Made by a program: the position numbers and the translations under genes
Source: Gemmatimonas sp.
Lineage (GTDB): Bacteria; Gemmatimonadota; Gemmatimonadetes; Gemmatimonadales; Gemmatimonadaceae
Direction: 5' to 3'
Length of the DNA: 64,000 nucleotides
NCBI GenBank assembly: GCA_965279375.1
Contig: OZ257156.1
Span: forward strand, 1,728,001-1,792,000
The notes under the pieces: model-generated
Seen by the model: only the letters and a program-made list of their open reading frames with translations
Told to the model about the DNA's origin: nothing
Database searches by the model: none
Shown here: positions 34,236 to 52,017 of the stretch, one piece after another
How the letters are laid out: the number at the start of each line of letters is the position of its first letter
Position numbering within the stretch: position 1 is the first letter of the stretch

Positions 34236-34904
34236 TCACACCCCGCGTACGACTCCAGCGCCTAGCCACACTCCCACAACGGTGCTGGCACAGGCCGCAC
34301 CCACGCGGATGGCCAGGCCGATCTGCTGGCTCAGGCTGCTCGCCAACCCGGCCACCGCACCCGTCATGATCGATACGAGACTCATCCCAAGGATCGTACC
34401 AACGCCGAAGACCACCAGGTAGACCAACTGCTCACTGGCTGAGCTTGCCGCGGCAACGATCAGGACCATCACGGCACCGCTGCCGGCCAGTCCGTGCGCG
34501 ATGCCGAACCCGAACGCGCCACGCGCCGAACGCAGGTTCTGGTGTGAATGGGGATGGGCGTGCGCGTGCGCAACTTCGTGGGCCGGCCCCTGCCGACGCC
34601 GGTGCCGACGCGCCTCCACTGCGAGCGTGCTCACGCCCAGCACGATCAGCAGCGCGGCTACTCCCAGCTCCGCCGTGCGGAAGAACGTGGCGGGGACGCG
34701 AATGCCCAACACGCTGATGCACAGCGCGACGACGCCCAATGACGCCGTGTGACCGATACCCCACGCCACACCCAGCCCCGATGCCGTGCGCCATCCATGT
34801 CGCGACGCCAACGTGGAGACCGCGGCCAGATGATCCGGTTCGAAGGCGTGACGGAATCCCACAAGAAACCCGATCCCGATCAGGGCGAAGATGGCGTGCG
34901 TCAT
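34236..34904 (-). CDS. Nickel transporter (NiCoT/UreH-like)
   Basis: RHAFEPDH (HX4DH) signature, WGIGH, His-rich loop HEVAHAHAHPHSH, HGLAGSG; ATGA overlap with hypF. Confidence 0.85.
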   Translation of the reverse strand: MTHAIFALIGIGFLVGFRHAFEPDHLAAVSTLASRHGWRTASGLGVAWGIGHTASLGVVALCISVLGIRVPATFFRTAELGVAALLIVLGVSTLAVEARRHRRRQGPAHEVAHAHAHPHSHQNLRSARGAFGFGIAHGLAGSGAVMVLIVAAASSASEQLVYLVVFGVGTILGMSLVSIMTGAVAGLASSLSQQIGLAIRVGAACASTVVGVWLGAGVVRGV

Positions 34905-37402
34905 TGCGGCCGGAACCGAAGAGCGTGGAAGTCGTTGCGGCCTGACGTCGCGACGGCGTCGTGCCTGGTCGAGAGCATCGTGGTCGAGATCTTCGTGGCC
35001 GCGATCATCGTGGCCGCGATCATCGCTTGCCCGAGCGCGATGCCCCCATCGTTGGGTGGCACACGCCGATGCGTCAGGACGCGAAAGCCCGCGGCGTGCA
35101 AGCGCTCGCGGGCGAGGGTCAGCAGCAACACGTTCTGGAAGACGCCGCCAGTGAGTCCGACCAGGTCGAGCTGGTGGCGATCGCGAACGCGCACGGCCAC
35201 GCGCACGATCGCATCGGCAATGGCCGAATGCATCCGCATGGCGATCAGCCCGCGATCGACGCCGCGTCGCAGGTCTCCGATTATGCGGCGCAACACCGGG
35301 GCCGCGTCGAACGTCATCGGGCGCCCCTCGGCTGCTGCAATCGCGAACACGTAGCCGCCCGTCCGATCGCGGCTGGGATCGTGACGCATCGCGCTCCACG
35401 CCATCGCCTCGAACTCCACGGCGGCCTGTCCCTCATAGCTCACGGTGGCCGGTCCGCCGCACAGGGCCGACGCCGCGTCGAGAAGTCGGCCCATCGAACT
35501 CGTCGTCACACAGCCAAAGCCACGATCGAGCTGCTGCGTGAGGACACGCCGCGATTCCGCGTTGATGGCGCGCTGGACGCCGTCCGGCGCATCCTCCCAC
35601 GCGACCCCGGCCGCATGCAACTGCGCCAGCGCCACGCGCGCGGGATGGCGCACCGCCGAGTCGCCGCCGGGCAGCTGTGTGGGGGCGAGGTGCGCGACAC
35701 GTTCGAAGCCGTGATAGTCGGCTACCAGCACCTCACCACCCCAGATCGTGCCGTCGGTGCCGTAGCCGGTGCCGTCGAACGCCACCCCGATCACGCGCTC
35801 ATGCGTCAGGCCATGCTCCGCCATCAGCGACGCCACATGCGCGTGGTGATGCTGCACTGTCATCACCGGCAGTCCGCGTTCTGCGGCCCAGGCACGCGCC
35901 ACCGCCGCCGACGCGTAGTCCGGATGGGCGTCGCAGGCGACGGCCATCGGTGTGGTCTCGAGCAGTGTGCTCAGATGCGACATCGTGGACGTGAGCAGCG
36001 CGCGTGTCTCGATGCCGGCTACGTCGCCGATGTGCGGACTGAGGAACGCGTGCTGGTCGCGCGTGATGCACAACGTGGCCTTGAGTTCGCCGCCGACGGC
36101 CAGCACAGACGGATAAGGCGCGCTCGTGACCGCACCGATCGAACCCGGCACGGCGGGAAGCGCGACGGGATACGGCGCGTACCCGCGCGACCGTCGGATT
36201 GGCAGCAGGTCGCCCCTCACCACGCGCATGACGGAATCATCGCATGGCATCGCGATCTCGCGGTCATGCAGCAGCAACCCGTCGCACAACGGTGCAAGTC
36301 GCGCGCGCGCCTCGTCGTTGGTGTAGGCGATCGGCTCGTCGCTCACGTTCCCTGACGTCATCACGAGTGGACCGTCCGCGGCCAACAGATGATGCAGTGG
36401 TGCATACGGCAGCATCACGCCCAGCAGATCGTGTCCCGGCGCGATGTTGGGAGCCAGCAGATTGTCGACGCGGGCACGCAGCAGGACGATCGGCGCTTCC
36501 GCGCTGCACAGGAGCGCGGCCTCCGCGTCGGACACCACGCCAACGCCGAGCGCCACGTCGATCGTTGCCACCATCACCGCGAGCGGTTTGGCCGCGCGCT
36601 GCTTCCGGTCGCGCAATCGCTGCACGGCGAGCGGATTGGTCGCGTCACACACCAGATGAAATCCACCGACGCCCTTCACTGCGACGGTGCCACCGGCCCG
36701 AATGCAGCGGAGCGCCGCGCCAAGGGGATCTCCGCTCCCGTCGCAGCCGGCGAGCATCTCCGCGGACGCGCTCGGTGAGCGCTCCCATGAGAGCTGCGGT
36801 CCACAGTCGGGGCAGGCGTTGGGCTGCGCGTGGAATCGACGATGGGTCGGTGTGTCGTACTCCCGCTGGCACGAGACGCACATGGTGAACGCCGCCATCG
36901 TCGTCTTCGCCCGATCGTACGGCAGGTCGCGCACGATGGTGTACCGTGGCCCGCAGTGACTGCAGTTGATGAACGGATAGCGATAGCGACGGTCCGTCGG
37001 GTCCCGCAGCTCGGCCAGACACGCGTCGCACGTCCCGATATCCTGGCTGACGACGGCTCGACGTTGACCGCCGGCGGCGGACACGGTACTCGCCACGATG
37101 CCAAAGCCCGTCGTGCCTCGCGGTGGAATCGATGCGCGCTCCACCGTCTCGATCCGCGCCTGTGGCGGGGCGTGGCGCTGCAGCGCGTCGAAGAAGCGTT
37201 CTACCGCGTCCGCATCTCCCTCGACTTCCAGAAACACGCCGTCCGCATCGTTGCCGACATGCCCCGTCAGCTCGCACTGCTGTGCCAACGCATGCACGAA
37301 GGGGCGAAATCCGACGCCCTGCACACCGCCACGCACGCGCGCGCGATCACGCACTTGCTCACGCACCTTCGCCGCCGCGGTCGATGTTGCCAGTGCGTTC
37401 AT
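34901..37402 (-). CDS. hypF: Carbamoyltransferase HypF
   Basis: VQGVGFRPFV, zinc fingers CDAC/CSHCGPRY/CVSC/CPDCGP, KGVGGFHL, HHHAH, DGTGYG, PPNDGGIALGQ. Confidence 0.97.
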   Translation of the reverse strand: MNALATSTAAAKVREQVRDRARVRGGVQGVGFRPFVHALAQQCELTGHVGNDADGVFLEVEGDADAVERFFDALQRHAPPQARIETVERASIPPRGTTGFGIVASTVSAAGGQRRAVVSQDIGTCDACLAELRDPTDRRYRYPFINCSHCGPRYTIVRDLPYDRAKTTMAAFTMCVSCQREYDTPTHRRFHAQPNACPDCGPQLSWERSPSASAEMLAGCDGSGDPLGAALRCIRAGGTVAVKGVGGFHLVCDATNPLAVQRLRDRKQRAAKPLAVMVATIDVALGVGVVSDAEAALLCSAEAPIVLLRARVDNLLAPNIAPGHDLLGVMLPYAPLHHLLAADGPLVMTSGNVSDEPIAYTNDEARARLAPLCDGLLLHDREIAMPCDDSVMRVVRGDLLPIRRSRGYAPYPVALPAVPGSIGAVTSAPYPSVLAVGGELKATLCITRDQHAFLSPHIGDVAGIETRALLTSTMSHLSTLLETTPMAVACDAHPDYASAAVARAWAAERGLPVMTVQHHHAHVASLMAEHGLTHERVIGVAFDGTGYGTDGTIWGGEVLVADYHGFERVAHLAPTQLPGGDSAVRHPARVALAQLHAAGVAWEDAPDGVQRAINAESRRVLTQQLDRGFGCVTTSSMGRLLDAASALCGGPATVSYEGQAAVEFEAMAWSAMRHDPSRDRTGGYVFAIAAAEGRPMTFDAAPVLRRIIGDLRRGVDRGLIAMRMHSAIADAIVRVAVRVRDRHQLDLVGLTGGVFQNVLLLTLARERLHAAGFRVLTHRRVPPNDGGIALGQAMIAATMIAATKISTTMLSTRHDAVATSGRNDFHALRFRPQ
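34966..35025. repeat. Four degenerate 15-bp tandem units in hypF 3' end
   Basis: TGGTCGAGAGCATCG/TGGTCGAGATCTTCG/TGGCCGCGATCATCG x2; encodes MIAAT-MIAAT-KISTT-MLST. Confidence 0.7.
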
Positions 37403-37440
37403 GGAGGAAGAGTCTGCGTCGCGCACCTCGTGCACGGAAA

Positions 37441-37457
37441 TAGCATGTTCATGCCAT
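37441..37457. promoter_or_regulatory. Putative 7-2-7 operator in the divergent hypF / DUF1641 promoter
   Basis: TAGCATG-TT-CATGCCA-T; 14 of 17 nt identical to site at 41930. Confidence 0.6.
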
Positions 37458-37526
37458 AACGTGCTCTGGTGCAAAGTCGTACCGTATCGCCTCCCACCCG
37501 AAGGTTCACGACCCCGGAGTCATCGC

Positions 37527-38312
37527 ATGGGCATCACACTCGTTGACGGCGACGCGTCACGACAGGAGCAGCTGCTCGCCAGACTGGCGGAACCGCAGAC
37601 AGCCGCCGCGTTGAACAAGCTCCTCGATCGCCTCGAAATCATCGTATTCGCCACCGAGGCGCTCGACGGCTTTCTGCATCGCGCCGACATCATCTCGGAT
37701 TCGGTGTCGGAATCCGTGGGTGATCTGCGCAAGATGGTTGGCGTCTCCGGTACCGCCGCGCTCATGTCTAAGCTGCCACAGCTCGCCGCAACGGGCGCGC
37801 AGGTCGCGGACGTCGCGCAGTCCCCGCCGGTGCAGCGCCTGCTCAACTCCGGACTGCTCGAAAAGCTCGGCGATCCGGAGACGATCGCCTCCATCAAGGG
37901 GCTCATCGACAAACTGGAGCTCGCGGTCTTCTCGCTCGAAGCGATGGATGGCTTCCTGCGCCGCGGCGACATGCTGGCCGATAACCTCGCCGACGCCGTC
38001 AACGACGCGCGCGGCATAGCCCCCGACATCGATCCGAAAAAGCTGCGGCAGGTGCTGGTGGACCTCCCCACGCTCGTCGAAGCGGGATCGACGCTGGTCA
38101 AGTCCGGCATGCTCGACCCCGAAGTCGTCATGCTGCTCGGCGAGGCCGGCCATGTCTTCGCCCGCGCCTACGACGATGCAAAGGGACACAAGCCGCAGAA
38201 CCTCGGCATCCTCGGACTCGCCAAGGCGCTGCGCGATCCGGACGTCTCGCGTTCGCTGGAGTTCGGCCTCCGCATCGCCAAGGCGTTCGGCAAGTCGCTC
38301 AAGGAGCACTAG
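37527..38312 (+). CDS. DUF1641 / HucM-like helical protein with internal duplication
   Basis: GGAG RBS; two L..P.....L..L.D.LE......EA.DGFL.R.D repeats; C-terminal GILGLAKALRDPDV....FG. Confidence 0.75.
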   Translation: MGITLVDGDASRQEQLLARLAEPQTAAALNKLLDRLEIIVFATEALDGFLHRADIISDSVSESVGDLRKMVGVSGTAALMSKLPQLAATGAQVADVAQSPPVQRLLNSGLLEKLGDPETIASIKGLIDKLELAVFSLEAMDGFLRRGDMLADNLADAVNDARGIAPDIDPKKLRQVLVDLPTLVEAGSTLVKSGMLDPEVVMLLGEAGHVFARAYDDAKGHKPQNLGILGLAKALRDPDVSRSLEFGLRIAKAFGKSLKEH

Positions 38313-38315
38313 CGC

Positions 38316-38708
38316 GTGCACGAACTCTCGCTGGCCCATGGCATCGTCGAGCTGGCGAGCGAGGCCGCCGAACGCGCGCAGGCCGCGCGCGTGACGGCGG
38401 TGCACCTGCGCGTCGGTCGCCTCTCTGGCGTCGAGGCGGGCGCGCTGCTCTTTTCGTATGACATTGCGGCGGCAGGCACGCCACTCGAAGGGTCGCGGCT
38501 CGTGATCGAGGAATTGCCGGTGGTGGTGTGGTGCGTGCCCTGCGGCGCACTGCGTGAGTTGCCGGGCGTGCAGCGCTTTCGCTGTCCCACCTGCGACACG
38601 CCATCGGGAGATATCAGACAAGGACGCGAGTGCGACGTGCAATCGATCGAGATCGAAGCCTCGCGCGTCGACTCGCTCGATGTTGAATCCTGCCAGCCCG
38701 TGTCGTAG
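38316..38708 (+). CDS. hypA: Nickel metallochaperone HypA
   Basis: MHELS start; CVPC and CPTC zinc finger; GRE. Confidence 0.96.
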   Translation: MHELSLAHGIVELASEAAERAQAARVTAVHLRVGRLSGVEAGALLFSYDIAAAGTPLEGSRLVIEELPVVVWCVPCGALRELPGVQRFRCPTCDTPSGDIRQGRECDVQSIEIEASRVDSLDVESCQPVS

Positions 38709-38748
38709 TGCGCGACGTCGTTCGATCCATCATCCGGACACATTCGTC

Positions 38749-39450
38749 ATGAGCAGTCCCCGCATCGTCGAAGTACGCGCTGGCGTCCTGAAGAAGAACG
38801 ACGAACTCGCACGCGCGCTGCGTGAGCGCTATACCGGCGCCGGTACCTTCGTCGTCAATCTCGTCTCCAGCCCGGGCACCGGAAAAACCGCACTGCTCGA
38901 AGCGATGTTGACCCGCCTGCATGCCAACGGCGTGCGCGTCGCGGCACTCGTCGGCGATCTGGAGACGGACAACGACGCACGCCGCCTCGCCCGCAGTGGC
39001 GCACCGGTTCGACAGATCAACACGCACGGCCGCTGCCACCTCGAAGCGGAGATGATCAGCACGCACCTCGAGGGCTGGCACCTCGATGACATCGAGATCC
39101 TCTTCGTCGAGAACGTCGGCAATCTCGTCTGCCCGTCGTCCTACGATCTGGGCGAAGCGATGCGTCTCGTCATGCTGTCGGTCACCGAAGGGGAAGACAA
39201 GCCGCTCAAATATCCGGGCATGTTCAACTCGGCCGACGTTGCAGTCATCACCAAGATGGACCTCGCCGTCGCCTGCGAGTTCGACGAACCGCTCGCCGTG
39301 GCCAACATCCGCGAAGTGCGCCCCGGCATGACGGTGCTCACCGTCTCGTCGAAACGCGGTGATGGGATGGACACGTTGCTGCAGGCGCTCACCGATGCCC
39401 GAAGTGCATGGCTGGCTGCTCGCGCCGAGGCCGCCGTCGGCGCGCTGTAG
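38749..39450 (+). CDS. hypB: Nickel-insertion GTPase HypB
   Basis: SSPGTGKT, CHLEA, ENVGNLVCP, SVTEGEDKPLKYP, TKMD. Confidence 0.97.
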   Translation: MSSPRIVEVRAGVLKKNDELARALRERYTGAGTFVVNLVSSPGTGKTALLEAMLTRLHANGVRVAALVGDLETDNDARRLARSGAPVRQINTHGRCHLEAEMISTHLEGWHLDDIEILFVENVGNLVCPSSYDLGEAMRLVMLSVTEGEDKPLKYPGMFNSADVAVITKMDLAVACEFDEPLAVANIREVRPGMTVLTVSSKRGDGMDTLLQALTDARSAWLAARAEAAVGAL

Positions 39451-39499
39451 ATTTGTGGCGTGACCCACGATCTGCGTTGTCACTCGTGAGCAGCCCGGC

Positions 39500-41248
39500 G
39501 TGAACGGCTCGCGCGCCTCACTCGATCGGCTCGCCGCGCTCCCGCCGCTGGCCGCACGTGATCGCGCCCTTGGCGCGATCGAGGCCATTCACGCCTGCGC
39601 ACGTGCCGTCGCACAGGAACCCGATGCGGTCGAGCTGGCGCGCGCGCTCGCGCATCAGCTGAGACGCACCCTGCGCGTGCAGAATGTGCTCGTCGCCTCC
39701 GTCACCGATGAACAGATCGTCGCCTGCACCTTTGCCATGTCGGGCGACGAGCTCCCCACCGACGATCAGCGCGACGCCATGCAGGCTCTCGCCGCGTGGG
39801 TGGTGCTACGCCGACAACTTTTCCTCGCCAACAACGACGAGCAGGTGATCGCCGGCGACGGCCGCCTGCTGTCGGAGCTCGGGTGGCGACAAGTCGTGGC
39901 CGTTCCCGTGCTGCATCATCAGGGACATCCACTCGCCGTCCTGCTGCTGGTGAGCCGTCGTGACGCGGGCGGCTTCAGTGCGGCCGATGTTCGCCTCGTC
40001 GAGACCGTCGCGGCCCCCGCCGCCGTCGCATTCGATCGCGCCACACTCCTCGGCCAGCTGCAAGAGTGGACGAATGGCATGGAGGCGCTGCTCACCTTCA
40101 GCTCGGCCGTCAATCGCCGCCGCGATCCGGCCACGCTGGTGCGCGACATGGTGGAGCATGCGGCACGGTTTCTCAGCGCCGATGGTGGGCGCGGCGGGGT
40201 CTGCGAAACCGTGCCCTGCAAGCCGCCCGTTACGCAGTTGCGCAGTGTCGCACGGTGGCACAACAACGGATGGATCGAGGAAGAGCGGACCTGGCGCGCC
40301 GATGAGGGCATTCCCGGTACCATGCTCGAAACCGAATTCCCGATCCTGATCGCCAGCTACGCCGATGATCGCCTCGCCGAGCCGGCGCTGATCGGTACGG
40401 TGCATCGCGCGATCGGTGTGCCGATCAAGAATGCGCACGATGTCGTGCTCGGCTTCTTCGAGTTGCACCGTGGTGAAGGGCGCCCCCCGTTCACCTGGCG
40501 CGACGCCGCGCTGCTGGAAGCGCTGGCTAGCACCATCGCCGTGGCCATCGACAACGAACGCCTCGCCGTGGAGCTCTCCACCAAGAGCGAGGAGGTACGT
40601 CAGCTCGCCGCGCATCATCTCCGACGTCTGGAAGACGAACGCCAGCACATCGCGCGTGAACTGCACGATGAGGCGGGGCAGGCGTTGGTGGCCGTGAAGC
40701 TGTCGCTGCAGGCGGCGACACGGCTCGTTCCCCCAGACCAGCCCGCGCTGCGCGAACAGTTGGACCATCTGCGCGGGCAGCTCAACGATGCCGCGACCCA
40801 GCTCAAGACGATGGCCCGCAACCTGCGCCCGCCCACGCTCGACCGCCTGGGGCTCGACATGGCGCTCGCGCAGCTGGCCGAAGAGACACAGGAGCGCATG
40901 GGGTGCGTCGTGCGACTGGAGATGGACTGGCATCCCAAGCGCCTCGCGCCGGAGATCGAGACGGCGCTCTTTCGCGTGACGCAGGAAGCGCTCACCAACG
41001 CGGCCAAGCATGCGGCAGCGCGCGAGGTCGCGATCTCGCTCACGTTCGACATGGCGCATGTGACGCTCCGCATCGTGGACAACGGCGCCGGCTTCGATGC
41101 ACGCGATGGCCGCGGCGGTCTCGGTATCATCGGCATTCGCGAGCGGATCGCCATGCTCGACGGCGACGTGCAGGTCATCTCCAGCTCCGGCGCCGGCACC
41201 ACGCTGGTCGCCCGCGTTCCCATTGCCGTCGGCGAGGCATCGCACTGA
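39500..41248 (+). CDS. Soluble GAF-GAF sensor histidine kinase (HisKA_3/NarX-type core)
   Basis: Two GAF-like segments (AVP...FSAADVRL; GVP...FTWRDAALL); ERQHIARELHDEAGQ, QEALTNAAKHA, DNGAGF, GLGIIGIRER; no TM. Confidence 0.9.
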   Translation: MNGSRASLDRLAALPPLAARDRALGAIEAIHACARAVAQEPDAVELARALAHQLRRTLRVQNVLVASVTDEQIVACTFAMSGDELPTDDQRDAMQALAAWVVLRRQLFLANNDEQVIAGDGRLLSELGWRQVVAVPVLHHQGHPLAVLLLVSRRDAGGFSAADVRLVETVAAPAAVAFDRATLLGQLQEWTNGMEALLTFSSAVNRRRDPATLVRDMVEHAARFLSADGGRGGVCETVPCKPPVTQLRSVARWHNNGWIEEERTWRADEGIPGTMLETEFPILIASYADDRLAEPALIGTVHRAIGVPIKNAHDVVLGFFELHRGEGRPPFTWRDAALLEALASTIAVAIDNERLAVELSTKSEEVRQLAAHHLRRLEDERQHIARELHDEAGQALVAVKLSLQAATRLVPPDQPALREQLDHLRGQLNDAATQLKTMARNLRPPTLDRLGLDMALAQLAEETQERMGCVVRLEMDWHPKRLAPEIETALFRVTQEALTNAAKHAAAREVAISLTFDMAHVTLRIVDNGAGFDARDGRGGLGIIGIRERIAMLDGDVQVISSSGAGTTLVARVPIAVGEASH

Positions 41249-41889
41249 TGCGCGGGCATCGCGTACTGGTGGTGGACGATCACGCTCTGGTACGCCGTGG
41301 CCTGATGGCGCTGCTTCAGTCGGAGGGGCGCTTTACCGTCGTCGGGGAAGCGGGGAACGGCGAAGAGGCACTCACGCTGGTCACGCAGCTCCGCCCGGAT
41401 ATCGTGCTGCTCGATCTCTCCATGCCGCGCATGGACGGTCTGGAGACGATTCGCCGCATTCGTCGCATGCCGATGCGTCTGCGCGTGCTCGTGCTGTCGA
41501 TGTACGACGACCTGCAGTTCATCGCACAGGCGCTCTCCGACGGCGCCGATGGCTACCTGCTGAAGGATGCGATGGACGATGAGCTCTTCACCGCGCTGGA
41601 CGCTGTGCTGCGCGGACAGCGCTATCTCGCCCGATCCATCGATCAATCACGCATCGCCGAAGTGGCCGTTCACTCGGTGGAGCTCACCCAGCGCGAGCGT
41701 GAAGTCCTGCAGCTCATCGCCGACGGCCACACCACGCAGCACGTCGCCGAGATTCTCTCTATCTCGCCACACACCGCCACACGTCACCGGGCCAACCTGA
41801 TGCACAAGCTGGACGTGCACAATCAGGTCGAACTCGTCCGGGCGGCGGTTCAGCGAGGGCTGATCGTGGTTCCCGGGCGCGGCGCCTAG
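41248..41889 (+). CDS. NarL/LuxR-family response regulator
   Basis: TGATG coupling; VVDDH, LLDLSMP, GYLLK; HTH LTQREREVLQLIADG...HRANLMHKL. Confidence 0.95.
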   Translation: MRGHRVLVVDDHALVRRGLMALLQSEGRFTVVGEAGNGEEALTLVTQLRPDIVLLDLSMPRMDGLETIRRIRRMPMRLRVLVLSMYDDLQFIAQALSDGADGYLLKDAMDDELFTALDAVLRGQRYLARSIDQSRIAEVAVHSVELTQREREVLQLIADGHTTQHVAEILSISPHTATRHRANLMHKLDVHNQVELVRAAVQRGLIVVPGRGA

Positions 41890-41929
41890 CCGCTGCTGCA
41901 TTCGCGGCCGTTGAAAAAATTCCGCCAGC

Positions 41930-41946
41930 TAACATGAACATGCCAT
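41930..41946. promoter_or_regulatory. Putative 7-2-7 operator upstream of hucS
   Basis: TAACATG-AA-CATGCCA-T; matches site at 37441. Confidence 0.6.
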
Positions 41947-42023
41947 TGTGAGCCCGTCGCCTCGACCCGACTGTATGCGGGCAACGAGCAAAGCACTTTC
42001 CCGTGCACGAGGAGATCGCATCG

Positions 42024-42995
42024 ATGGCGACCGTGTTGTGGCTGCAAGGCGGCGCATGTTCCGGTAATACCATGTCGTTCCTCAACGCTGAGGAGCCGAG
42101 TGCGTGTGACCTCGTCACCGACTTTGGCATCGACATTCTGTGGCACCCGTCGCTTGGCGTGGAGATGGGCGATCAGGCCAAGCAGATCTTCAGCGACCTG
42201 GCGTCGGGCAAGCGGCAGCTCGACATCTTCGTCTTTGAAGGCACGGTGATTCAGGGGCCCAACGGCACCGGTCGCTTCAACATGTTCGCCGATCGCCCTA
42301 TGAAGGACTGGGTGCGCGAGCTCTCCGCGCAGGCCGGGGCGGTCGTCGCGCTCGGCGATTGCGCCTGCTGGGGCGGCATCCCGGCCACCGAGCCCAACCC
42401 GGTCGACAACATCGGGCTGCAGTACCTCAAGCGCGCGCACGGTGGATTCCTCGGCGCGAACTTCAAGAGCAAGTGGGGGCTGCCTGTCGTGAATATCCCC
42501 GGCTGCCCGGCGCATCCGGACTGGGTCACGCAGATTCTCGTCGCCATCGCCGCCGGTCGTGCCGGCGACATCGCGCTGGACGAGTTGCAGCGGCCGCAGA
42601 CGTTCTTCAAGACGTTCACGCAGACCGGTTGCACGCGCAATCAGTACTTCGAGTACAAGCAGTCGGTGCCGGAGTTCGGTCAGGGCACGCGTCAGGGTTG
42701 CCTGTTCTACGAGCAGGGCTGCCGCGGCCCGATGACGCGCTCCCCATGCAATCGCATTCTCTGGAACCGCCAGTCGTCGAAGACGCGCGCCGGCATGCCC
42801 TGCACCGGTTGCACCGAGCCCGAGTTCCCGTTCCACGATCTCAAGCCCGGCTCTGTCTTCAAGACGCAGAAGATCAGCGGGACCATTCCGAAGGAAGTGC
42901 CCACCGGTTCGGATCACGTGTCGTACATGGCCCACGCGGCCGCCGCACGTGTCGCCGCGCCGAAGTGGTCCAAAGAAGACATGTTCGTCGTCTGA
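42024..42995 (+). CDS. hucS: Group 2a [NiFe]-hydrogenase small subunit
   Basis: GAGGAG RBS; LWLQGGACSGN, GDCACWGG, PGCPAHP, QTGCTR, GCRGP, CTGC; no Tat signal. Confidence 0.93.
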   Translation: MATVLWLQGGACSGNTMSFLNAEEPSACDLVTDFGIDILWHPSLGVEMGDQAKQIFSDLASGKRQLDIFVFEGTVIQGPNGTGRFNMFADRPMKDWVRELSAQAGAVVALGDCACWGGIPATEPNPVDNIGLQYLKRAHGGFLGANFKSKWGLPVVNIPGCPAHPDWVTQILVAIAAGRAGDIALDELQRPQTFFKTFTQTGCTRNQYFEYKQSVPEFGQGTRQGCLFYEQGCRGPMTRSPCNRILWNRQSSKTRAGMPCTGCTEPEFPFHDLKPGSVFKTQKISGTIPKEVPTGSDHVSYMAHAAAARVAAPKWSKEDMFVV

Positions 42996-43022
42996 TCACT
43001 CACCCGACTGGAGCAGCGTAAC

Positions 43023-44648
43023 GTGGCTACGGCAACTCAGCCCATGCCGTCCGACCTGCGGATCTCTCCGCTCGGACGTGTTGAAGGCGATCTCGATCTC
43101 AAGGTCAAAATCCGCGATGGCGTCGTCACCGACGCCTGGACCGAAGCCAGCATGTTCCGTGGCTTCGAGATCATCCTGCGTGGCAAGGATCCGCAGGCCG
43201 GTCTGATCGTCACGCCGCGCATCTGCGGCATCTGCGGAGGTTCGCATCTGTACAAGGCGTGCTACGCGCTCGACACGGCGTGGAAGACGCACGTGCCGCG
43301 CAACGCCACGCTCGTGCGCAACATCGCACAGGCCTGCGAAACCATTCAGTCCATTCCGCGCTGGTTCTACGCGCTGTTCGCGATTGATCTCACGAACAAG
43401 AACTACGCGCATCTCCCCGAGTACGACGAAGTGGTGCGGCGTTTCGCGCCGTTCGTCGGCACCAGCTACGAGTCGGGCGTCACTCTCTCCGGCAAGCCGG
43501 TGGAAGTGTACGCGCTCTTTGGCGGACAGTGGCCGCACTCGAGCTTCATGATCCCCGGTGGCGTGATGTGCGCCCCCACGCTTTCCGACGTCACGCGCGC
43601 CATCGCCATCCTCGAACACTGGAAGCGCGAATGGCTGGAGAAGCAGTGGCTCGGCTGCTCCATCGAGCGGTGGATGGAGATCAAGACGTACAAGCAGATG
43701 ATCGAGTGGGCCGACGAAAACGACAGCCAGCGCAACTCCGATTGCGGTCTGTTCATTCGGTTCGCACAGCGCGCCGGCCTCGACAAGTTCGGCAAGGGAT
43801 GCGGGGCCTATCTCACCACGGGTACCTACTTCCAGCCCGAGCTCTACGAGAACCCCACGGTCGAAGGGCGCAACGCGGCGCTCATCAATCGCGCCGGCAT
43901 CTACGACGGTTCTGGCTTCCATGAGTTCGATCATCTGAACGTGCGCGAAGATGTCTCGCGCTCGTTCTACCGCGGCCAGAGCTTCCTGCATCCGTGGCAG
44001 GGTGAAACCGAGCCGATCGATCCGCTCGATGGCCACAAGCAGGACAAGTATTCGTGGGCCAAGTCGCCGCGCTACAACGTGCCCGGCAAGGGCAGCATGC
44101 CGCTCGAAGCCGGTCCGCTCTCGCGCCAGGTCATCGCTGGCCAGGCCGCGACCGCTGGGCATCAGGATCACGATCCGCTCTTCCTCGACGCCATCACCAC
44201 CGTCGGCCCCAGCGTCTTCGTGCGCGCGATGGCGCGCATGCACGAGGTGTGCAAGTACTGGAAGCTCGCGCGCGGCTGGCTCGACGATCTCGATCTGCAC
44301 GACAAGTTCTACACCAAGCCGACCGAGTACACCGAAGGTCGCGGCTTCGGCGCCACCGAAGCGGCGCGCGGCTCGCTCGCCGATTGGATCGTCATCAGCA
44401 ACGGCCGCATCGAGAACTATCAGGTCATCACGCCGACCGCGTGGAATATCGGTCCTCGCGATGGCAACGGGGTGTTAGGACCGATGGAGCAGGCGTTCAT
44501 CGGCGCCGAGATCAAGGATCCATCCGATCCGGTGGAGATGGGCCACGTCGCCCGCTCGTTCGACTCGTGCCTCGTGTGCACGGTGCACGCGTATGACGAG
44601 AAGACTGGGAAAGAACTCTCCCGCTTCCGAATCGGCGAGATGGGATGA
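43023..44648 (+). CDS. hucL: Group 2a [NiFe]-hydrogenase large subunit
   Basis: GRVEGDLD, L1 PRICGICGGSH, L2 SFDSCLVCTVH plus cleavable C-terminal tail. Confidence 0.95.
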   Translation: MATATQPMPSDLRISPLGRVEGDLDLKVKIRDGVVTDAWTEASMFRGFEIILRGKDPQAGLIVTPRICGICGGSHLYKACYALDTAWKTHVPRNATLVRNIAQACETIQSIPRWFYALFAIDLTNKNYAHLPEYDEVVRRFAPFVGTSYESGVTLSGKPVEVYALFGGQWPHSSFMIPGGVMCAPTLSDVTRAIAILEHWKREWLEKQWLGCSIERWMEIKTYKQMIEWADENDSQRNSDCGLFIRFAQRAGLDKFGKGCGAYLTTGTYFQPELYENPTVEGRNAALINRAGIYDGSGFHEFDHLNVREDVSRSFYRGQSFLHPWQGETEPIDPLDGHKQDKYSWAKSPRYNVPGKGSMPLEAGPLSRQVIAGQAATAGHQDHDPLFLDAITTVGPSVFVRAMARMHEVCKYWKLARGWLDDLDLHDKFYTKPTEYTEGRGFGATEAARGSLADWIVISNGRIENYQVITPTAWNIGPRDGNGVLGPMEQAFIGAEIKDPSDPVEMGHVARSFDSCLVCTVHAYDEKTGKELSRFRIGEMG

Positions 44649-45214
44649 TGACGGAACGGACGCGTGAACCGATCGCCGATGCGATGAATCACGCAGGAGC
44701 GGGCCCGGCGAACATCACCGGGCCCGTTCGCACGCTGATCGTCGGCTGCGGAAACATCTTGCGCGGAGACGATGCGTTAGGCCCGATCTTCATTCGGCAC
44801 ATGTGGGACCGTGGGCTGCCGGACGGTGTGCGCTGTGCCGACGGCGGCACTGGCGGCATGGATGTCGCCTTCCAGATGCGCGGCGTGCCGCACGTCATTT
44901 TGGTCGATGCGTGCACCAGCGGCTCAGAGCCTGGCGCCATGTTCCGACTGCCGGGACTCGAGGTGGAGCACCTTCCGCCGCTCAAAGGCATCAACCTGCA
45001 CGCCTTTCGCTGGGATCACGCGCTCGCCTTCGCCCGCTGGCTGCTCAAGGACGAGTACCCGCAACGCGTCACGGTCTTTCTGATCGAGGCTGCGCAGTTC
45101 GCTCCCGGCGAACCACTCTCGCCCGCCGTCGATGCCGCCATGCGTAAGCTGATCGACATCATCGAAGCGGAGATCGCCGCCGAGTCGCTCGTGGAGGCGA
45201 TACCCGATGCCTGA
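44645..45214 (+). CDS. Hydrogenase maturation endopeptidase (HupD/HupW-like)
   Basis: GCGNILRGDDALG, DGGTGG, ILVDA, HAFRWDHAL. Confidence 0.93.
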   Translation: MMTERTREPIADAMNHAGAGPANITGPVRTLIVGCGNILRGDDALGPIFIRHMWDRGLPDGVRCADGGTGGMDVAFQMRGVPHVILVDACTSGSEPGAMFRLPGLEVEHLPPLKGINLHAFRWDHALAFARWLLKDEYPQRVTVFLIEAAQFAPGEPLSPAVDAAMRKLIDIIEAEIAAESLVEAIPDA

Positions 45215-45569
45215 GCAGGCGACGGCGACGGGCACGGTGACGGCGACAGTTGCCGCCACGTTCGAGGTGGAATTCACCGCGCACGGCTATCTCGTGCTCA
45301 CCCACGACGTAGCGCAGCAGTGCTTTCCCTTCGATGTGCTGCTGGCCATGCCCAAGGGGCGCGAGCTCTGGCTCTTGCCGACGCGCGGCGCCGCTGCGGG
45401 TGGACTGATTCTCAAGCAGCGCAATCTCTCTGGGGATCGCTGCGTGCTGATCCGCGAAGCGATCAACGACGCGCCGCTGCTTGGTCGCATGCCGGCGTTC
45501 TGGGACGCAAGCAACGGTGCGCTGCGCGTCGCGCTGCCGATCACGTTGCCACCCTCGATCTTCGGGTGA
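45207..45569 (+). CDS. Hypothetical protein in hydrogenase operon
   Basis: Overlaps upstream stop; operon position; GGLILKQRN..GDR. Confidence 0.65.
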   Translation: MPEQATATGTVTATVAATFEVEFTAHGYLVLTHDVAQQCFPFDVLLAMPKGRELWLLPTRGAAAGGLILKQRNLSGDRCVLIREAINDAPLLGRMPAFWDASNGALRVALPITLPPSIFG

Positions 45570-45573
45570 ACGC

Positions 45574-45804
45574 ATGGACGACGCCCCCTCGCCAGGTCGC
45601 GCGCTGCGCGCCACGGCTAGCATCGCGGAAGATCGCGGTCGCTGGGTGGTCTCGTTGACTGTGCTCAGCATCCCGGATCGTGACGACTACGTCACCACAC
45701 ACCGTATTGCCGACTACCCCACACGTCAGGCCGCCGAGGTTGCTGCGCGCTGGATCGTTGGGGCAGCGGATCGTCAATTTTCGCATCACCGCTGGGGATT
45801 CTGA
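45574..45804 (+). CDS. Small hypothetical protein in hydrogenase operon
   Basis: Fills operon gap; TGATG coupling to the next gene. Confidence 0.6.
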   Translation: MDDAPSPGRALRATASIAEDRGRWVVSLTVLSIPDRDDYVTTHRIADYPTRQAAEVAARWIVGAADRQFSHHRWGF

Positions 45805-47060
45805 TGGAGCCTGTTCACGTCGCTGCTGCGCACGCACTGCTGCGCCCGCAACCGCTCGGCATCTTTCCGTTCCCGGCGGGCTTGCTCCTGCTGCCGACCT
45901 CGCACGATCCGAGCGCCGTCACGGTGCTTGCGTCGTTGCTGCGCGGGGATGTCACGACGACGCTCCCCGCGGAGTGGGAGTTCTACGCGCGCGCGGTCGA
46001 CGGCGATCGCGACAGCGCCGCGGCCCTGCTGCAGGACGATCCCTCCACCATCGCGGCGTACAACCGCTTCGTGCTCACCGGCGACTACGCTTCACTCGAA
46101 CGTGCGCGAGAAGACGATCGCGACGCCGTGGTACGTCTCGCGGAACTCGCGGCGTTCGTACAGGGTGCGCGCGATGATGCGCCGGACGACGCAGGACTCG
46201 ATCACGAACTGCTCGCGGTGGCCCGCATGGCGCGCGCCGCACAGCATCTGGAGCACGAAGACGCTCCGCCAGCGCTTGTACTGCTGCGCGACGGCGCCGA
46301 CGCAGCGCGAGAGACGTCTCCGGTACTCTCGGCGCAGCTGCTGGCGCAGGCGGCGCAGTTGGCGGAGTCGTCCGATCACACCTTGGCGATCTCGCTCTGG
46401 CGCGAAGCGGTGCGACTCGCTGGCGACTCGCCGCTTGCGCAACTCAAATCGGAGCTGCTGCTCGGCCTCGCTCTCGCGTTGCATGCGACCGCCGAAGGAC
46501 GGCGCGGCGCACTGACCGAAGTGGTGCAACTCTATCAGGCGGCGCTGCACGCCGGTATCACGCTCGAAGGCACACCCGATACGTACGCGCTCGTGCAGAG
46601 CAACATCGGCTTGGCGTATGTCTCCATGCCCATGACCGACGCCGGCGACAAGATCCGGCACGCCGTGGCCGTCTCGTCGTTTCGTGAAGCGCTCAAGGTC
46701 TACACGCGCGAAGCCTTCCCCGAGCAATGGACCAGCACCATGCTCAACATGGCCAACGCGCTGCAGTATCTCGACTCTTCACATCGCGAGGAGAATCTCA
46801 TGCTCGCGGTGGATACGTACGAGGAACTGCTCGCGGTGCGCAACAAGGCCTACGATCCCGTCGGCTATGGACGCTTGCTCGCCAATCAGGCCAACGCGTT
46901 GGCGCATCTGGGCATCTTCTCCGCGGCGCTCGAGAAATTCAACGAAGCGTACAAGCTGCTGCACTGGCACGGCGAAGCAGAGCTTGCACACTCCATTCTC
47001 GAGCAGGTCGAACGCATCAACGCGCAGATGGGCACCGCACCCGACGCCTCGAACTCCTGA
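45804..47060 (+). CDS. TPR-repeat hydrogenase accessory protein
   Basis: PQPLGIFPFPAG N-terminus; helical repeats (NIGLAY, NMANALQY, NQANALAHLG). Confidence 0.8.
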   Translation: MEPVHVAAAHALLRPQPLGIFPFPAGLLLLPTSHDPSAVTVLASLLRGDVTTTLPAEWEFYARAVDGDRDSAAALLQDDPSTIAAYNRFVLTGDYASLERAREDDRDAVVRLAELAAFVQGARDDAPDDAGLDHELLAVARMARAAQHLEHEDAPPALVLLRDGADAARETSPVLSAQLLAQAAQLAESSDHTLAISLWREAVRLAGDSPLAQLKSELLLGLALALHATAEGRRGALTEVVQLYQAALHAGITLEGTPDTYALVQSNIGLAYVSMPMTDAGDKIRHAVAVSSFREALKVYTREAFPEQWTSTMLNMANALQYLDSSHREENLMLAVDTYEELLAVRNKAYDPVGYGRLLANQANALAHLGIFSAALEKFNEAYKLLHWHGEAELAHSILEQVERINAQMGTAPDASNS

Positions 47061-47079
47061 CTCGCTTCGGCATCTCGCT

Positions 47080-47454
47080 ATGGAACAGTACGCACGCCAA
47101 CAGTTTGACTTCTTCCTCAACACCGCGATCGAGCGCTTCATCGACCGCGTCGAGCAGCGCTGCGGAGGGCCCGTGCCGGCGCTGGCTCAGTTGCGCTCCG
47201 ATCCGAACGGCGAGGGGATGTGGCTCAGCGACTTCGTGATCGTGCTCTTTCGTGACTTCATGATCGACAACACCGGAGGCGCCTGCTTCGTGCTACAGGC
47301 GCTCGCGCGGCGTCCGGTACCGGTCGTTTCCACCGAGGGCCAGACCATCGATCAGGCGCTGCAGACGCTCGCGCGCGCTGCGTTCGCGGCGGTGCTCGAG
47401 GCAAAGTCCGCCGAGATGCTCGAACAACGGCTCGTCTTTCAGGTGACCGAATGA
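47080..47454 (+). CDS. Hypothetical protein in hydrogenase operon
   Basis: 124-aa ORF with ATGA overlap to next gene. Confidence 0.65.
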   Translation: MEQYARQQFDFFLNTAIERFIDRVEQRCGGPVPALAQLRSDPNGEGMWLSDFVIVLFRDFMIDNTGGACFVLQALARRPVPVVSTEGQTIDQALQTLARAAFAAVLEAKSAEMLEQRLVFQVTE

Positions 47455-48365
47455 TTGCCTCTGCCACGGGATCGGCTCCCGCCGCCACGCCAGTTTCGGC
47501 GCCGCCCGCACCATCCGGCGCCGCCGCCGAACTGGCCACGCTCGCCACCGCGGTTGACGACGCGCTCACGCAAGTGCGGGGCATGCCCATCGATCATCGC
47601 TCGCGCGCCATGGCGCTCAAAGAAGCGGTGGAGGCCTTTCATAAGAGTGGACTCACCACCATCGTGCGCGCGCTCAAGGCTGACCCGCGCGGCAAGGAGA
47701 TTCTGCTCGAGCTTGTTGACGATCCGTCGGTCTATGCACTCTTCGCGATGCACGGCATCGTCCGGGCCGATCTCTCCACGCGCGTAGCGCGCATCATCGA
47801 GAATCTGCGCCCGTACACGCAGTCGCACGGCGGCGACGTCGAACTGGTGGATGTGCGCGACGGCACCGTGTACGTGCGCATGCAGGGCTCGTGCAGCGGC
47901 TGCTCCATGTCCGCCGTTACGCTCCGCAACGGAGTGGAAGAAGCGCTTCGCGAACAGTGCCCGGAGATCAGCAAGCTTGAAGTGGTCCCCACAGAAGCAC
48001 CGGAGGATCCGGCGCCCGCGCTCGTCACACTCGGTCGCGCCGGTCGCGATGCTGGCTGGATTGCGGGACCAGCATTCAGCACCCTCGTCGAAGGCAAGCC
48101 CGCCGTGATGGAGCTCGCCAACGGCAAGAGCCTCGTGCTCATTCGCATCGGCGACGACGTACAGGCCTTTCACAATGCCTGTGCGCATCTGGGCCTCCCC
48201 ATCGATGGTGGCACCGTCAGCATCGAGGACAAGACGATCACCTGCCCGTGGCATGGCTTCCGCTTCGATTGCACCAACGGTGAATGCCTCACCGCGCCGC
48301 AGGCGCAGCTCGAAGGCGTGCCGCTGCGCATCACGGGTGATGTCATCTTCGTTCGTCCTGCGTAG
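47451..48365 (+). CDS. NifU-C + Rieske [2Fe-2S] fusion protein (HucE-like)
   Basis: RPY..SHGGDVEL...GSCSGC; Rieske NACAHLG and CPWHG. Confidence 0.88.
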   Translation: MIASATGSAPAATPVSAPPAPSGAAAELATLATAVDDALTQVRGMPIDHRSRAMALKEAVEAFHKSGLTTIVRALKADPRGKEILLELVDDPSVYALFAMHGIVRADLSTRVARIIENLRPYTQSHGGDVELVDVRDGTVYVRMQGSCSGCSMSAVTLRNGVEEALREQCPEISKLEVVPTEAPEDPAPALVTLGRAGRDAGWIAGPAFSTLVEGKPAVMELANGKSLVLIRIGDDVQAFHNACAHLGLPIDGGTVSIEDKTITCPWHGFRFDCTNGECLTAPQAQLEGVPLRITGDVIFVRPA

Positions 48366-48380
48366 ATCAGTGCATCGCAT

Positions 48381-49490
48381 ATGAAGCCGCGCGTACGCAT
48401 CGGTGCTGCATCGCCCTTCGGTCTGGCCCTGCCGTCGGCACAACCCACGGCATCGCAGCTCTACGCGCCGCGCGGCGTCTGGATGGACGACCGTCGGCTG
48501 ATCATCGCAGACTCGGGGAACCACCGCATCCTGATCTGGCACACCATGCCGGAGCAGGACGGATGCGACGCCGACGTGGTGCTCGGCCAGGCCTCCTTCA
48601 CTGCGGAAGGTCCGCGCGCCGCGGGTGCAGGTGCGGCCAACGGACTCCATCTCCCAACGGGAGTCTTGGTCCACGACGGCATGCTCCTCGTCGCCGATGC
48701 GTGGCATCATCGCGTGCTCGTCTGGAACGAACTCCCCACGCGCAGCAACACGCCGCCGTCCTTCGCCATCGGCCAGCCCGATCTCGAATCCACGCTTCCC
48801 AACGCTGGCGGCGCCATCACCGGCAATGCGCTCTATTGGCCGTACGGCATCCAGATCGTCAACGGCTGGCTCTGGATTGCCGACACCGGCAATCGACGAG
48901 TGCTGGGCTGGCCCGGCATTCCCACGCACGGGGAGCATGCAGCAGTCGTACTCGGCCAGGATGGCTTCGAGCGCGGCGACGAGAATCGTGGTGGTGCACC
49001 CACCTCGTGCTCGTTTCGGTGGCCACATGCCATCGCCGGCGACGCCAACTCGCTCTACATCGCCGATGCGGGCAATCATCGCGTGCTCGGCTGGTCCAGC
49101 ATCCCCACCGAAGACGCGCCAGCAACACTCGTCCTCGGCCAGCAGGATTTCTCGACGAACACCGAACAGCCGCATCGCAAGCAGGGCGCGCAACGCATGC
49201 GGTTCCCGTACGCGCTCGCGCTGCAGGACCGCACGTTGTACGTCGCCGACACCGCCAACAATCGCGTGCTTTTTTGGAACGACGTACCGACTGTTGGCGC
49301 GGGCGTTCCGGCGGACGAAGTCGTCGGCCAGCACGACTTCGATGCCTCGGGCGAGAATCGCTGGAAGTCCGTGCAGGACGACACGCTCTGCTGGCCATAC
49401 GGCATCGCCACCTGCGGCGATCGTTTCGCCATTGCAGACTCCGGAAACAACCGCGTCATGCTGTGGGACGCGGCGCTCTCCCCTCTCTAG
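48381..49490 (+). CDS. NHL-repeat hydrogenase accessory protein
   Basis: Six P.G....IAD.GN.RV repeats with VLGQ.DF linkers. Confidence 0.88.
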   Translation: MKPRVRIGAASPFGLALPSAQPTASQLYAPRGVWMDDRRLIIADSGNHRILIWHTMPEQDGCDADVVLGQASFTAEGPRAAGAGAANGLHLPTGVLVHDGMLLVADAWHHRVLVWNELPTRSNTPPSFAIGQPDLESTLPNAGGAITGNALYWPYGIQIVNGWLWIADTGNRRVLGWPGIPTHGEHAAVVLGQDGFERGDENRGGAPTSCSFRWPHAIAGDANSLYIADAGNHRVLGWSSIPTEDAPATLVLGQQDFSTNTEQPHRKQGAQRMRFPYALALQDRTLYVADTANNRVLFWNDVPTVGAGVPADEVVGQHDFDASGENRWKSVQDDTLCWPYGIATCGDRFAIADSGNNRVMLWDAALSPL

Positions 49491-49500
49491 GATTCGACTC

Positions 49501-49799
49501 ATGTGCCTCGCCGTCCCCGGTCGCATTGCGGAGATCTTCCACGCCAATGGCACACGCATGGCCCGCCTCGACTTCGGCGGCATCAAGAAGGACGTGTGTC
49601 TCGCGTATCTCCCTGACGCCGTCGTCGGCGACTACGCGATCGTCCATGTTGGCTTCGCCATCAGTCGCATCGACGAAGCGTCCGCGATGGAGACGCTGCG
49701 TCAGTTTCGCGAGCTGGGCATTCTCGAAGAAGAACTCGGCGAAGCGCCCATCGAGAGCTATGCCACGCCGCGCGACGAAAGCTGCCCGGTGATCCCGCT

Positions 49800-49803
<4 letters not shown>
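49501..49803 (+). CDS. hypC: Hydrogenase chaperone HypC
   Basis: [19 protein letters not shown]. Confidence 0.96.
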
Positions 49804-50909
<1,106 letters not shown>

Positions 50910-50952
50910 CGCGCGTACGCACCATCGCGATATCGCTGACTAAGCTTCTGTC

Positions 50953-52017
50953 ATGACCTCCGCGCCGACGTACGACATCAGCAACTGGAGCTGCCCGCTT
51001 CCGCTGCGCGACTATCCCAACATCGTCATCGGACACGGCGGCGGCGGCGCGCTCGGCAACGAACTCGTCGAGCATCTCTTCAAGCCGGCATTCTCCAACG
51101 AAACGCTCGACGGCATGACCGACTCGGCCGTCGTCACGCTGCCCGGTACGCGCATCGCCGTTTCCACTGACTCGTTCGTGGTTCGCCCGTTGTTCTTTCC
51201 GGGCGGCAGCATCGGTACGCTGGCGGTGAACGGCACCGTGAACGATCTGGCAATGAGCGGCGCCACGCCGCTCTACCTAACCGCCGGCTTCATCCTCGAG
51301 GAAGGCTTCGCGATGGAGTCGCTCGGCCGTATCGTGGCCGACATGGCGGAGGCGGCGCGTCGAGCCAACGTGCGCATCATCACCGGCGACACCAAAGTGG
51401 TGGAGCGCGGCCACGGCGATGGCTGCTACATCAACACCGCTGGCATCGGCGTCGTGACCGGAGATCGGGTCATCAATCCCAAGCGCGCCACCGCTGGCGA
51501 TGCCATTCTCGTGAGCGGCACACTGGGCGATCACGGCATGGCCATCATGAGCGTGCGTGAAGGGCTCGAGTTCGATACCACCATCGTCAGCGACTGCGCG
51601 CCGCTGCACGATCTGGTGCGCGTGCTGCTCGATGCGGCGCCGGATGTGCATGTGCTGCGCGATCCAACGCGCGGTGGTCTCGCGTCGTCGCTCAATGAAA
51701 TCGCGGGGCAGGCGGGCGTCGGCATGCTACTGCTCGAGAAGGACATCCCCGTGCGGCCGCAGGTGGCGGCAGCCTGCGAAATTCTGGGGATGGACCCGGT
51801 GTACGTGGCCAACGAGGGCAAGCTCGTCGCCATCGTGCCCCGCGATCAGGCGGAGGCGGCACTCGCCGCGATGCGCGCGCATCCGCTCGGCGCTGAGGCG
51901 GCCATCATCGGTGAAGTGACCGAGCGTCACCCGGGGCTGCTGGTGGCGCAGACGGCCATTGGTGCGAGCCGAGTGATCGCGATGCAACTTGGAGAGCAGC
52001 TGCCGCGCATTTGCTGA
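50953..52017 (+). CDS. hypE: Carbamoyl dehydratase HypE
   Basis: HGGGG, TDSFVV, GTVNDLA, GDTKVV, DPTRGG, NEGK, terminal PRIC. Confidence 0.97.
   Translation: MTSAPTYDISNWSCPLPLRDYPNIVIGHGGGGALGNELVEHLFKPAFSNETLDGMTDSAVVTLPGTRIAVSTDSFVVRPLFFPGGSIGTLAVNGTVNDLAMSGATPLYLTAGFILEEGFAMESLGRIVADMAEAARRANVRIITGDTKVVERGHGDGCYINTAGIGVVTGDRVINPKRATAGDAILVSGTLGDHGMAIMSVREGLEFDTTIVSDCAPLHDLVRVLLDAAPDVHVLRDPTRGGLASSLNEIAGQAGVGMLLLEKDIPVRPQVAAACEILGMDPVYVANEGKLVAIVPRDQAEAALAAMRAHPLGAEAAIIGEVTERHPGLLVAQTAIGASRVIAMQLGEQLPRIC

Follow-up and report, generated by a model that had tools for sequence, protein, structure and literature searches.

Huc enzymes, the group 2a hydrogenases, let aerobes gain energy from trace H2 in air. 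Other hydrogenases are known to have a dedicated two-component activator: in the H2-sensing HoxBC-HoxJ-HoxA system of Cupriavidus necator, this role falls to HoxA, an NtrC-type regulator. The accessible parts of a 2026 paper report that mycobacterial DosR, the partner of DosS and DosT, controls the hydrogenase genes Hhy and Hyh (PMC13098282). For the Huc enzyme of Mycobacterium smegmatis, which is subject to GylR catabolite control, the same source and a second 2026 paper, likewise available in part, state that none of GylR, Crp1, and Crp2 binds the huc promoter, and that its direct regulators and their signals are unidentified (PMC13098282, PMC13289019). A further model is NarX/NarL at Escherichia coli yeaR, where, in the available sections of the source, NarL uses a single 7-2-7 site just upstream of the -35 element, centered at -43.5, in a mode called distinct from that of canonical class II activators (PMC10853779). 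Here, we describe a Huc locus in a 64,000-nucleotide stretch of a Gemmatimonas sp. genome (contig OZ257156.1, positions 1,728,001 to 1,792,000; hereafter the window). Two inverted-repeat boxes in this locus are probably the operator through which the adjacent NarL-family response regulator, once phosphorylated, activates the Huc operons.

A first-pass annotation of the window had reported the same 7-2-7 word at two hydrogenase promoters, and both copies were confirmed: TAGCATGTTCATGCCAT at 37441-37457 and TAACATGAACATGCCAT at 41930-41946, identical in 14 of 17 positions. Box 1 (TAGCATG-TT-CATGCCA, 37441..37456) lies between the divergent hypF gene and the hucM-hypA-hypB-kinase-regulator operon, while box 2 (TAACATG-AA-CATGCCA, 41930..41945) lies in front of hucS; neither is assigned a strand. 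The pattern TRRCATGNNCATGYYA had two matches in the whole 5.31-Mb genome, and these were the window's own boxes. A position weight matrix (PWM), trained on 16 sites from eight loci of the same phylum, ranked the two boxes first and second genome-wide (28.2 and 22.0 bits; next best 15.6), although these ranks are not independent, as both boxes were among the training sites. The same two intergenic regions are also joined by an unrelated 15/17 match, inverted, around CGTGCACG, at 37424-37440 (adjoining box 1) and 41998-42014 (over the hucS ribosome-binding site), which is not conserved in relatives. The second shared word, around GTGCAC, was rejected as an element, having no fixed position in relatives.

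The strongest support for an operator comes from orthologous loci. Searches for HucL gave eight positive genomes among 401 of the window's phylum, one of them the window's own, and 4/301, 13/301, 2/351, 1/201, and 0/201 genomes elsewhere; 8 of 17 plasmid matches were included as well. All seven same-phylum relatives retain the kinase-regulator pair and have the box at both promoters, with box 1 at the same place in each. Of the 80 genome loci and 80 metagenome loci returned by scans of wider collections, 3 and 7, respectively, were orthologs; the others, mostly generic paralogs, were left out of the counts. Taken together, all 18 Huc loci with a GAF-GAF-HisKA_3 kinase, a NarL-family regulator, and hucS have the box, at 31 promoters in total and across three phyla. 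The annotation had named one outcome that would speak against its proposal: orthologs of the locus with the two-component system still present but the motif gone. No such case was observed among loci with hucS, and none of 24 other hydrogenase loci had the box at a promoter. Among the loci held out from training, all 10 with the pair and hucS carried it (15 sites scoring 6.2-26.8 bits, with shuffle p at or below 0.05); they include records from Holophagales, Bryobacterales, and Anaerolineales. Source names among the kinase homologs were Gemmatimonas, Gemmatimonadaceae, and Acidobacteriota. One further locus, L102, was too short to judge.

The PWM of the 16 training sites gives the consensus ATAGCAWG-NN-CWTGCTAT, and the 31 sites share a symmetric core of two inverted heptamers spaced by 2 bp (TAGCAWG-NN-CWTGCTA). 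The exact pattern proposed earlier, TRRCATGNNCATGYYA, is corrected accordingly; it fits the window's two sites and only these 2 of the 31. The 17-bp spacers that follow diverge across sites while the boxes stay the same; within the window, the spacers match at 6 of 22 positions. The box also follows the promoter when genes are rearranged. It precedes hucM-hucS in L052 and hypA-hypB-hucM-hucS in L101, and in L100 it occurs solely at the head of a single fused operon. In L098, a C-terminal hucM remnant stands alone before hypA (about 6990-7125), and the first box has been lost while the hucS box is kept.

The 24 hydrogenase loci used for comparison, with 46 upstream regions between them, lack the box by PWM: the top score was at most 2.6 bits across 29 regions from 16 loci, and at most 2.8 bits across 17 regions from eight named plasmid loci. 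Twenty of these 24 comparison loci clearly lack the pair, while L205, L210, L211, and L212 have too little upstream DNA to tell; L198 and L212 encode more distant hydrogenases (41-43% HucL identity). Ten Chloroflexota loci keep the hucM-hypA-hypB-hucS order without kinase, regulator, or box. In the 5 of 12 Chloroflexota genomes searched whole, only generic regulators were found (196 bits or less, versus 276-363 for orthologs), and five same-genus genomes without a HucL match had no ortholog-level regulator (175-179 bits, versus 276-363). In genome G671, two loci are Huc-like (L195 and L197); one of them has the pair and boxes (HucL 84%), and the other lacks them (55%). Other regulator genes lie near huc elsewhere (L213, L214, L216, L218-L220), encoding AraC on a Mycobacterium plasmid, an ECF/anti-sigma system in Thermus, two TetR proteins in Runella, and a sigma54 activator in Alphaproteobacteria. 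The single mycobacterial locus examined, which is not that of M. smegmatis, differs from the window in having an AraC gene and no box.

The regulon is likely confined to this cluster. No third strong site was found by PWM in the 5.3-Mb genome. In five other genomes, 7 of 10 matches at two or fewer mismatches were located at huc promoters; of the remaining three, two lie inside coding frames and the third (L230) was not inspected. Apart from that one match, no wider regulon was seen in the window genome and these five.

The boxes hold a fixed position relative to promoter-like elements. The usual arrangement, seen in 27 of 31 sites, is the box, an adjoining -35-like hexamer, and, 17 bp further on, a -10-like hexamer; in these 27 sites, a nAnnnT hexamer lies 38-40 nucleotides from the box start, versus 0-6 sites at 13 control offsets. 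In the promoters after the regulator gene, the six bases 3' of the box start with TT in 17 of 17 cases (TTG in 16), 17 bp before the -10-like hexamer. By the usual sigma70 spacing, the box would span -51 to -36, with its center at about -43.5. The earlier placement as a class II activator site near -42 is refined accordingly: the register is that of NarL at yeaR, which the available text of PMC10853779 sets apart from canonical class II. The annotation had further pointed to AC(C/T)GTAT as a shared downstream element (ACCGTAT at 37481, ACTGTAT at 41970). This word occurs in 2 of 31 sites, both the window's, and is just the -10; as a second binding element it was rejected on the same count.

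From the fixed spacing across loci, a sigma70-type hucM promoter core is predicted on the plus strand at 37457..37485, with a weak -35 TAACGT (37457-62), a 17-bp spacer, and a -10 TACCGT (37480-85), giving a start near 37492. The predicted hucS core (41946..41974, plus strand) has a -35 TTGTGA (41946-51), again 17 bp, and a weak -10 GACTGT (41969-74), with a start near 41981. Directly 5' of box 2 lies the A-tract GAAAAAATT (41914-41921) in a genome of 65% GC, which might act as an UP-like element. Box 1 is also predicted to serve a divergent hypF promoter on the minus strand (37411..37440), with TTTCCG adjoining the box, a -10-like CAGACT (37416-37411), and a start near 37404. Control of hypF by box 1 had been only a guess, and it gains support from a nAnnnT hexamer at the mirrored position: where a divergent gene is present, 10 of 12 loci have this hexamer, whereas only 1 of 17 sites has it behind box 2, which served as control. 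In the first promoters, a perfect TAGCA half-site is found on the left, hypF-facing side in 12 of 14 cases and never on the right; in the other promoters, the best half-site faces hucS (right in 16 of 17, left in 0). The predicted hypF -10 lies only 8 nucleotides from the ATG in the window, and 6 in L009 and L010, with no purine-rich stretch between (37402-37416 in the window). This short distance suggests that the hypF message is leaderless or nearly so.

The candidate binder is the response regulator encoded at 41248..41889 (plus strand), which likely recognizes the boxes. It consists of a PF00072 receiver and a PF00196 LuxR/GerE helix-turn-helix domain, with D10, D11, D56, and K106 invariant, and has no AAA+ domain. 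Its best match in the PDB is NarL (E 9.6e-44), although at 148 bits against a NarL model cut-off of 250 it falls outside the NarL/NarP regulon proper. The recognition helix, SPHTATRHRAN, is near-invariant in 20 of 20 orthologs, and has T/R/A at the three base-reading positions where NarL has K188/V189/K192. The partner kinase (39500..41248, plus strand) is a soluble GAF-GAF-HisKA_3-HATPase protein with an invariant H389 and no clear membrane helix (highest 19-residue hydropathy 1.4). In its domain order, it resembles DosS, which is also a GAF-GAF-HisKA_3-HATPase protein. The second GAF domain is the conserved one (W258, F280, Y287, D290, E321, H323, W333; no conserved cysteine), and its closest solved relatives are the GAF-A domains of DosT and DosS (E 1.6e-4). 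Unlike in these sensors, the loop with the heme histidine is shortened, and no conserved histidine was found there in 115 homologs; the target here is Huc, and the boxes are not known to match the DosR box. As to the ligand of the sensor, a fold search and an atlas returned generic GAF/HisKA_3 matches only. The locus has no sensory hydrogenase, which, together with the NarL-type regulator, distinguishes it from HoxBC-HoxJ-HoxA. The signal is probably a small molecule or metal in the cytoplasm and not H2 itself.

Compared to NarX/NarL at yeaR as covered in the accessible text of PMC10853779, the two systems share a HisKA_3 kinase with a NarL/LuxR regulator, a single 7-2-7 site by the -35 element at -43.5, and TA at the outer ends of the site. 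They differ in the sequence of the site and in the base-reading residues, in the sensor, which is soluble GAF-GAF here and a membrane nitrate sensor in NarX, and in scope, since the regulon here is apparently one cluster, with one box apparently serving two divergent promoters.

In the mechanism we favor, the soluble kinase would phosphorylate D56 of the regulator, whose dimer would bind both boxes, centered near -43.5, and recruit RNA polymerase at three weak promoters. From box 2 it would activate the structural operon running from hucS-hucL to hypCDE, and from box 1 the hucM-hypAB-kinase-regulator operon, creating positive feedback, as well as, in the opposite direction, hypF-nicO. Enzyme, stalk, nickel supply, and maturation would rise together. 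Observed directly are the conserved boxes, the constant distance between them and the -35/-10-like hexamers, and their occurrence together with the pair; we infer binding, its sign, the feedback, and the nature of the signal.

Several observations weigh against this mechanism. That the two boxes resemble each other by chance, as two short GC-poor words, is suggested by the modest pairwise likeness: 27 of 1000 shuffles of both intergenic regions reach 14/17, and the nonconserved 15/17 match joins the same regions. The case therefore rests on conservation in orthologous loci, where 31 promoters from three phyla keep the box even though their 17-bp spacers have drifted apart; this already refutes chance, to which we assign next to no probability. 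A more serious alternative is that the same regulator does bind the boxes, yet as a repressor, or as an activator in one direction and a repressor in the other. Repressors often use palindromic sites between divergent genes, and the box touches the -35 position, where an abutting site could repress. Moreover, K174 and R178, with which NarL contacts the alphaCTD, are not conserved in the regulator (variable, mostly uncharged or acidic), so its activating surface differs from that of NarL. A steric repressor, however, would have no need of the single exact register seen in 27 of 31 sites, and none of the boxes overlaps the stretch from -35 to -10. A plain sigma70 consensus scan found no promoters here, which counts against the favored mechanism but is in line with weak cores, as expected of activator-dependent promoters. 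We consider repression unlikely.

The pair could also merely travel with the cluster while an unlinked regulator, sensing redox, carbon, or nickel, binds the boxes. On a quick tree of HucS and HucL, 1-2 changes suffice to explain box and pair, so that their co-occurrence comes close to one event and the 18 loci are not independent trials. In addition, L096 (1524-5433) retains the pair, hypA, hypB, and a shortened hucM, with no box and no hucS within 4.2 kb downstream; this cassette has possibly decayed or been re-purposed. Also counting against the favored mechanism, no box was found 5' of hypA in L052 or L098, nor 5' of the kinase gene in L101, and the weakest positives (6.2, 6.2, and 7.6 bits) have scores that chance gives about once per 10-20 kb and rest on position. 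A global factor should nonetheless have more sites than the two in this genome, and the other genomes add no promoter site among those inspected. Related loci without the pair lose the box, and the 7-2-7 form and -43.5 register are traits of the NarL family. All this makes an unlinked regulator quite improbable. Finally, TGGCA...TGCTA resembles a sigma54 motif by eye, and Alphaproteobacterial Huc loci carry sigma54 activators; on this reading, the motif would belong to the core promoter of an alternative sigma factor (an ECF, or sigma54 with its -24/-12 elements) and not be an operator. The GG-N10-GC spacing of sigma54 occurs in 0 of 31 sites, by which that form was rejected; the motif is palindromic, has separate -35/-10-like hexamers downstream, and is accompanied by a regulator without an AAA+ domain. 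We regard an alternative sigma factor as very improbable.

Activation by the adjacent regulator thus remains the preferred explanation, and box and regulator appear to form a cassette of about one evolutionary origin. More tentatively, this may be a self-contained cassette that moves between phyla with Huc, and the first direct transcription factor and operator for a group 2a atmospheric-H2 hydrogenase. In that speculative case, one box would fire two divergent promoters, the system would feed back on itself, and a heme-less DosT-like GAF domain would read a signal not described so far, for instance redox state or the availability of nickel. The proposed operator and its regulon would be new, while the architecture itself, a NarL-type 7-2-7 site at -43.5, was already known. 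No description of the pair or the box was found in the literature searched, which left out most subscription papers. The text supplements of PMC7784904 do not mention a regulator or kinase, although its Fig. S4 gene maps, images outside the text search, may show the pair; the accessible part of PMC12976888 has no regulator terms. As far as the available text of PMC7784904 goes, 10% H2 drew no response from hucL of Gemmatimonas aurantiaca, and in stationary phase the gene dropped 51-fold. A fall is reported there for C. aggregans and A. ferrooxidans as well, so control by growth phase is not peculiar to the pair. For non-mycobacterial lineages, the locus supplies a candidate regulator, its 16-bp site, a soluble sensor, and predicted starts at three promoters, which makes the question of Huc's switch directly bench-testable there, while the mycobacterial case is not answered.

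The gene order of the locus is nicO and hypF on the minus strand, box 1, the DUF1641 gene, hypA, hypB, kinase, regulator, box 2, hucS, and hucL, with a protease gene, accessory genes, and then hypC, hypD, and hypE 3' of hucL. The hypF carbamoyltransferase gene (34901..37402, minus strand) probably starts at the ATG at 37402; the gene after it encodes a nickel transporter of the NicO family (about 34236-34940, minus strand). The nickel-insertion genes hypA and hypB occupy 38316..39450 (plus strand). The group 2a genes hucS-hucL, the protease and accessory genes (TPR, NifU-Rieske, NHL), and hypC, hypD, and hypE extend over 42024..52017 on the plus strand. No terminator was found between the regulator gene and hucS by a plain scan, so read-through from the hucM promoter is possible. 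HucS and HucL together with a HucM-like DUF1641 protein and Rieske and NHL accessory genes identify this as a group 2a (Huc) locus, and the accessory set matches the description in the accessible text of PMC7784904. The window's HucL is 71% identical to a mycobacterial plasmid copy, and the enzyme is of the same class as that of M. smegmatis, with HucM, HucS, and HucL. The operon described earlier as DUF1641-hypAB-two-component system is indeed led by the DUF1641 gene (37527..38312, plus strand), whose product can now be named more precisely as a homolog of HucM, the membrane/quinone stalk of Huc (match to 7uus_Q, E 1.2e-10). Proteins of the HucM class are described as quinone-transporting in the available part of PMC13524794. 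Within this homolog, the N-terminal segment of HucM is matched twice, at residues 16-68 and 109-256, which suggests an internal duplication.

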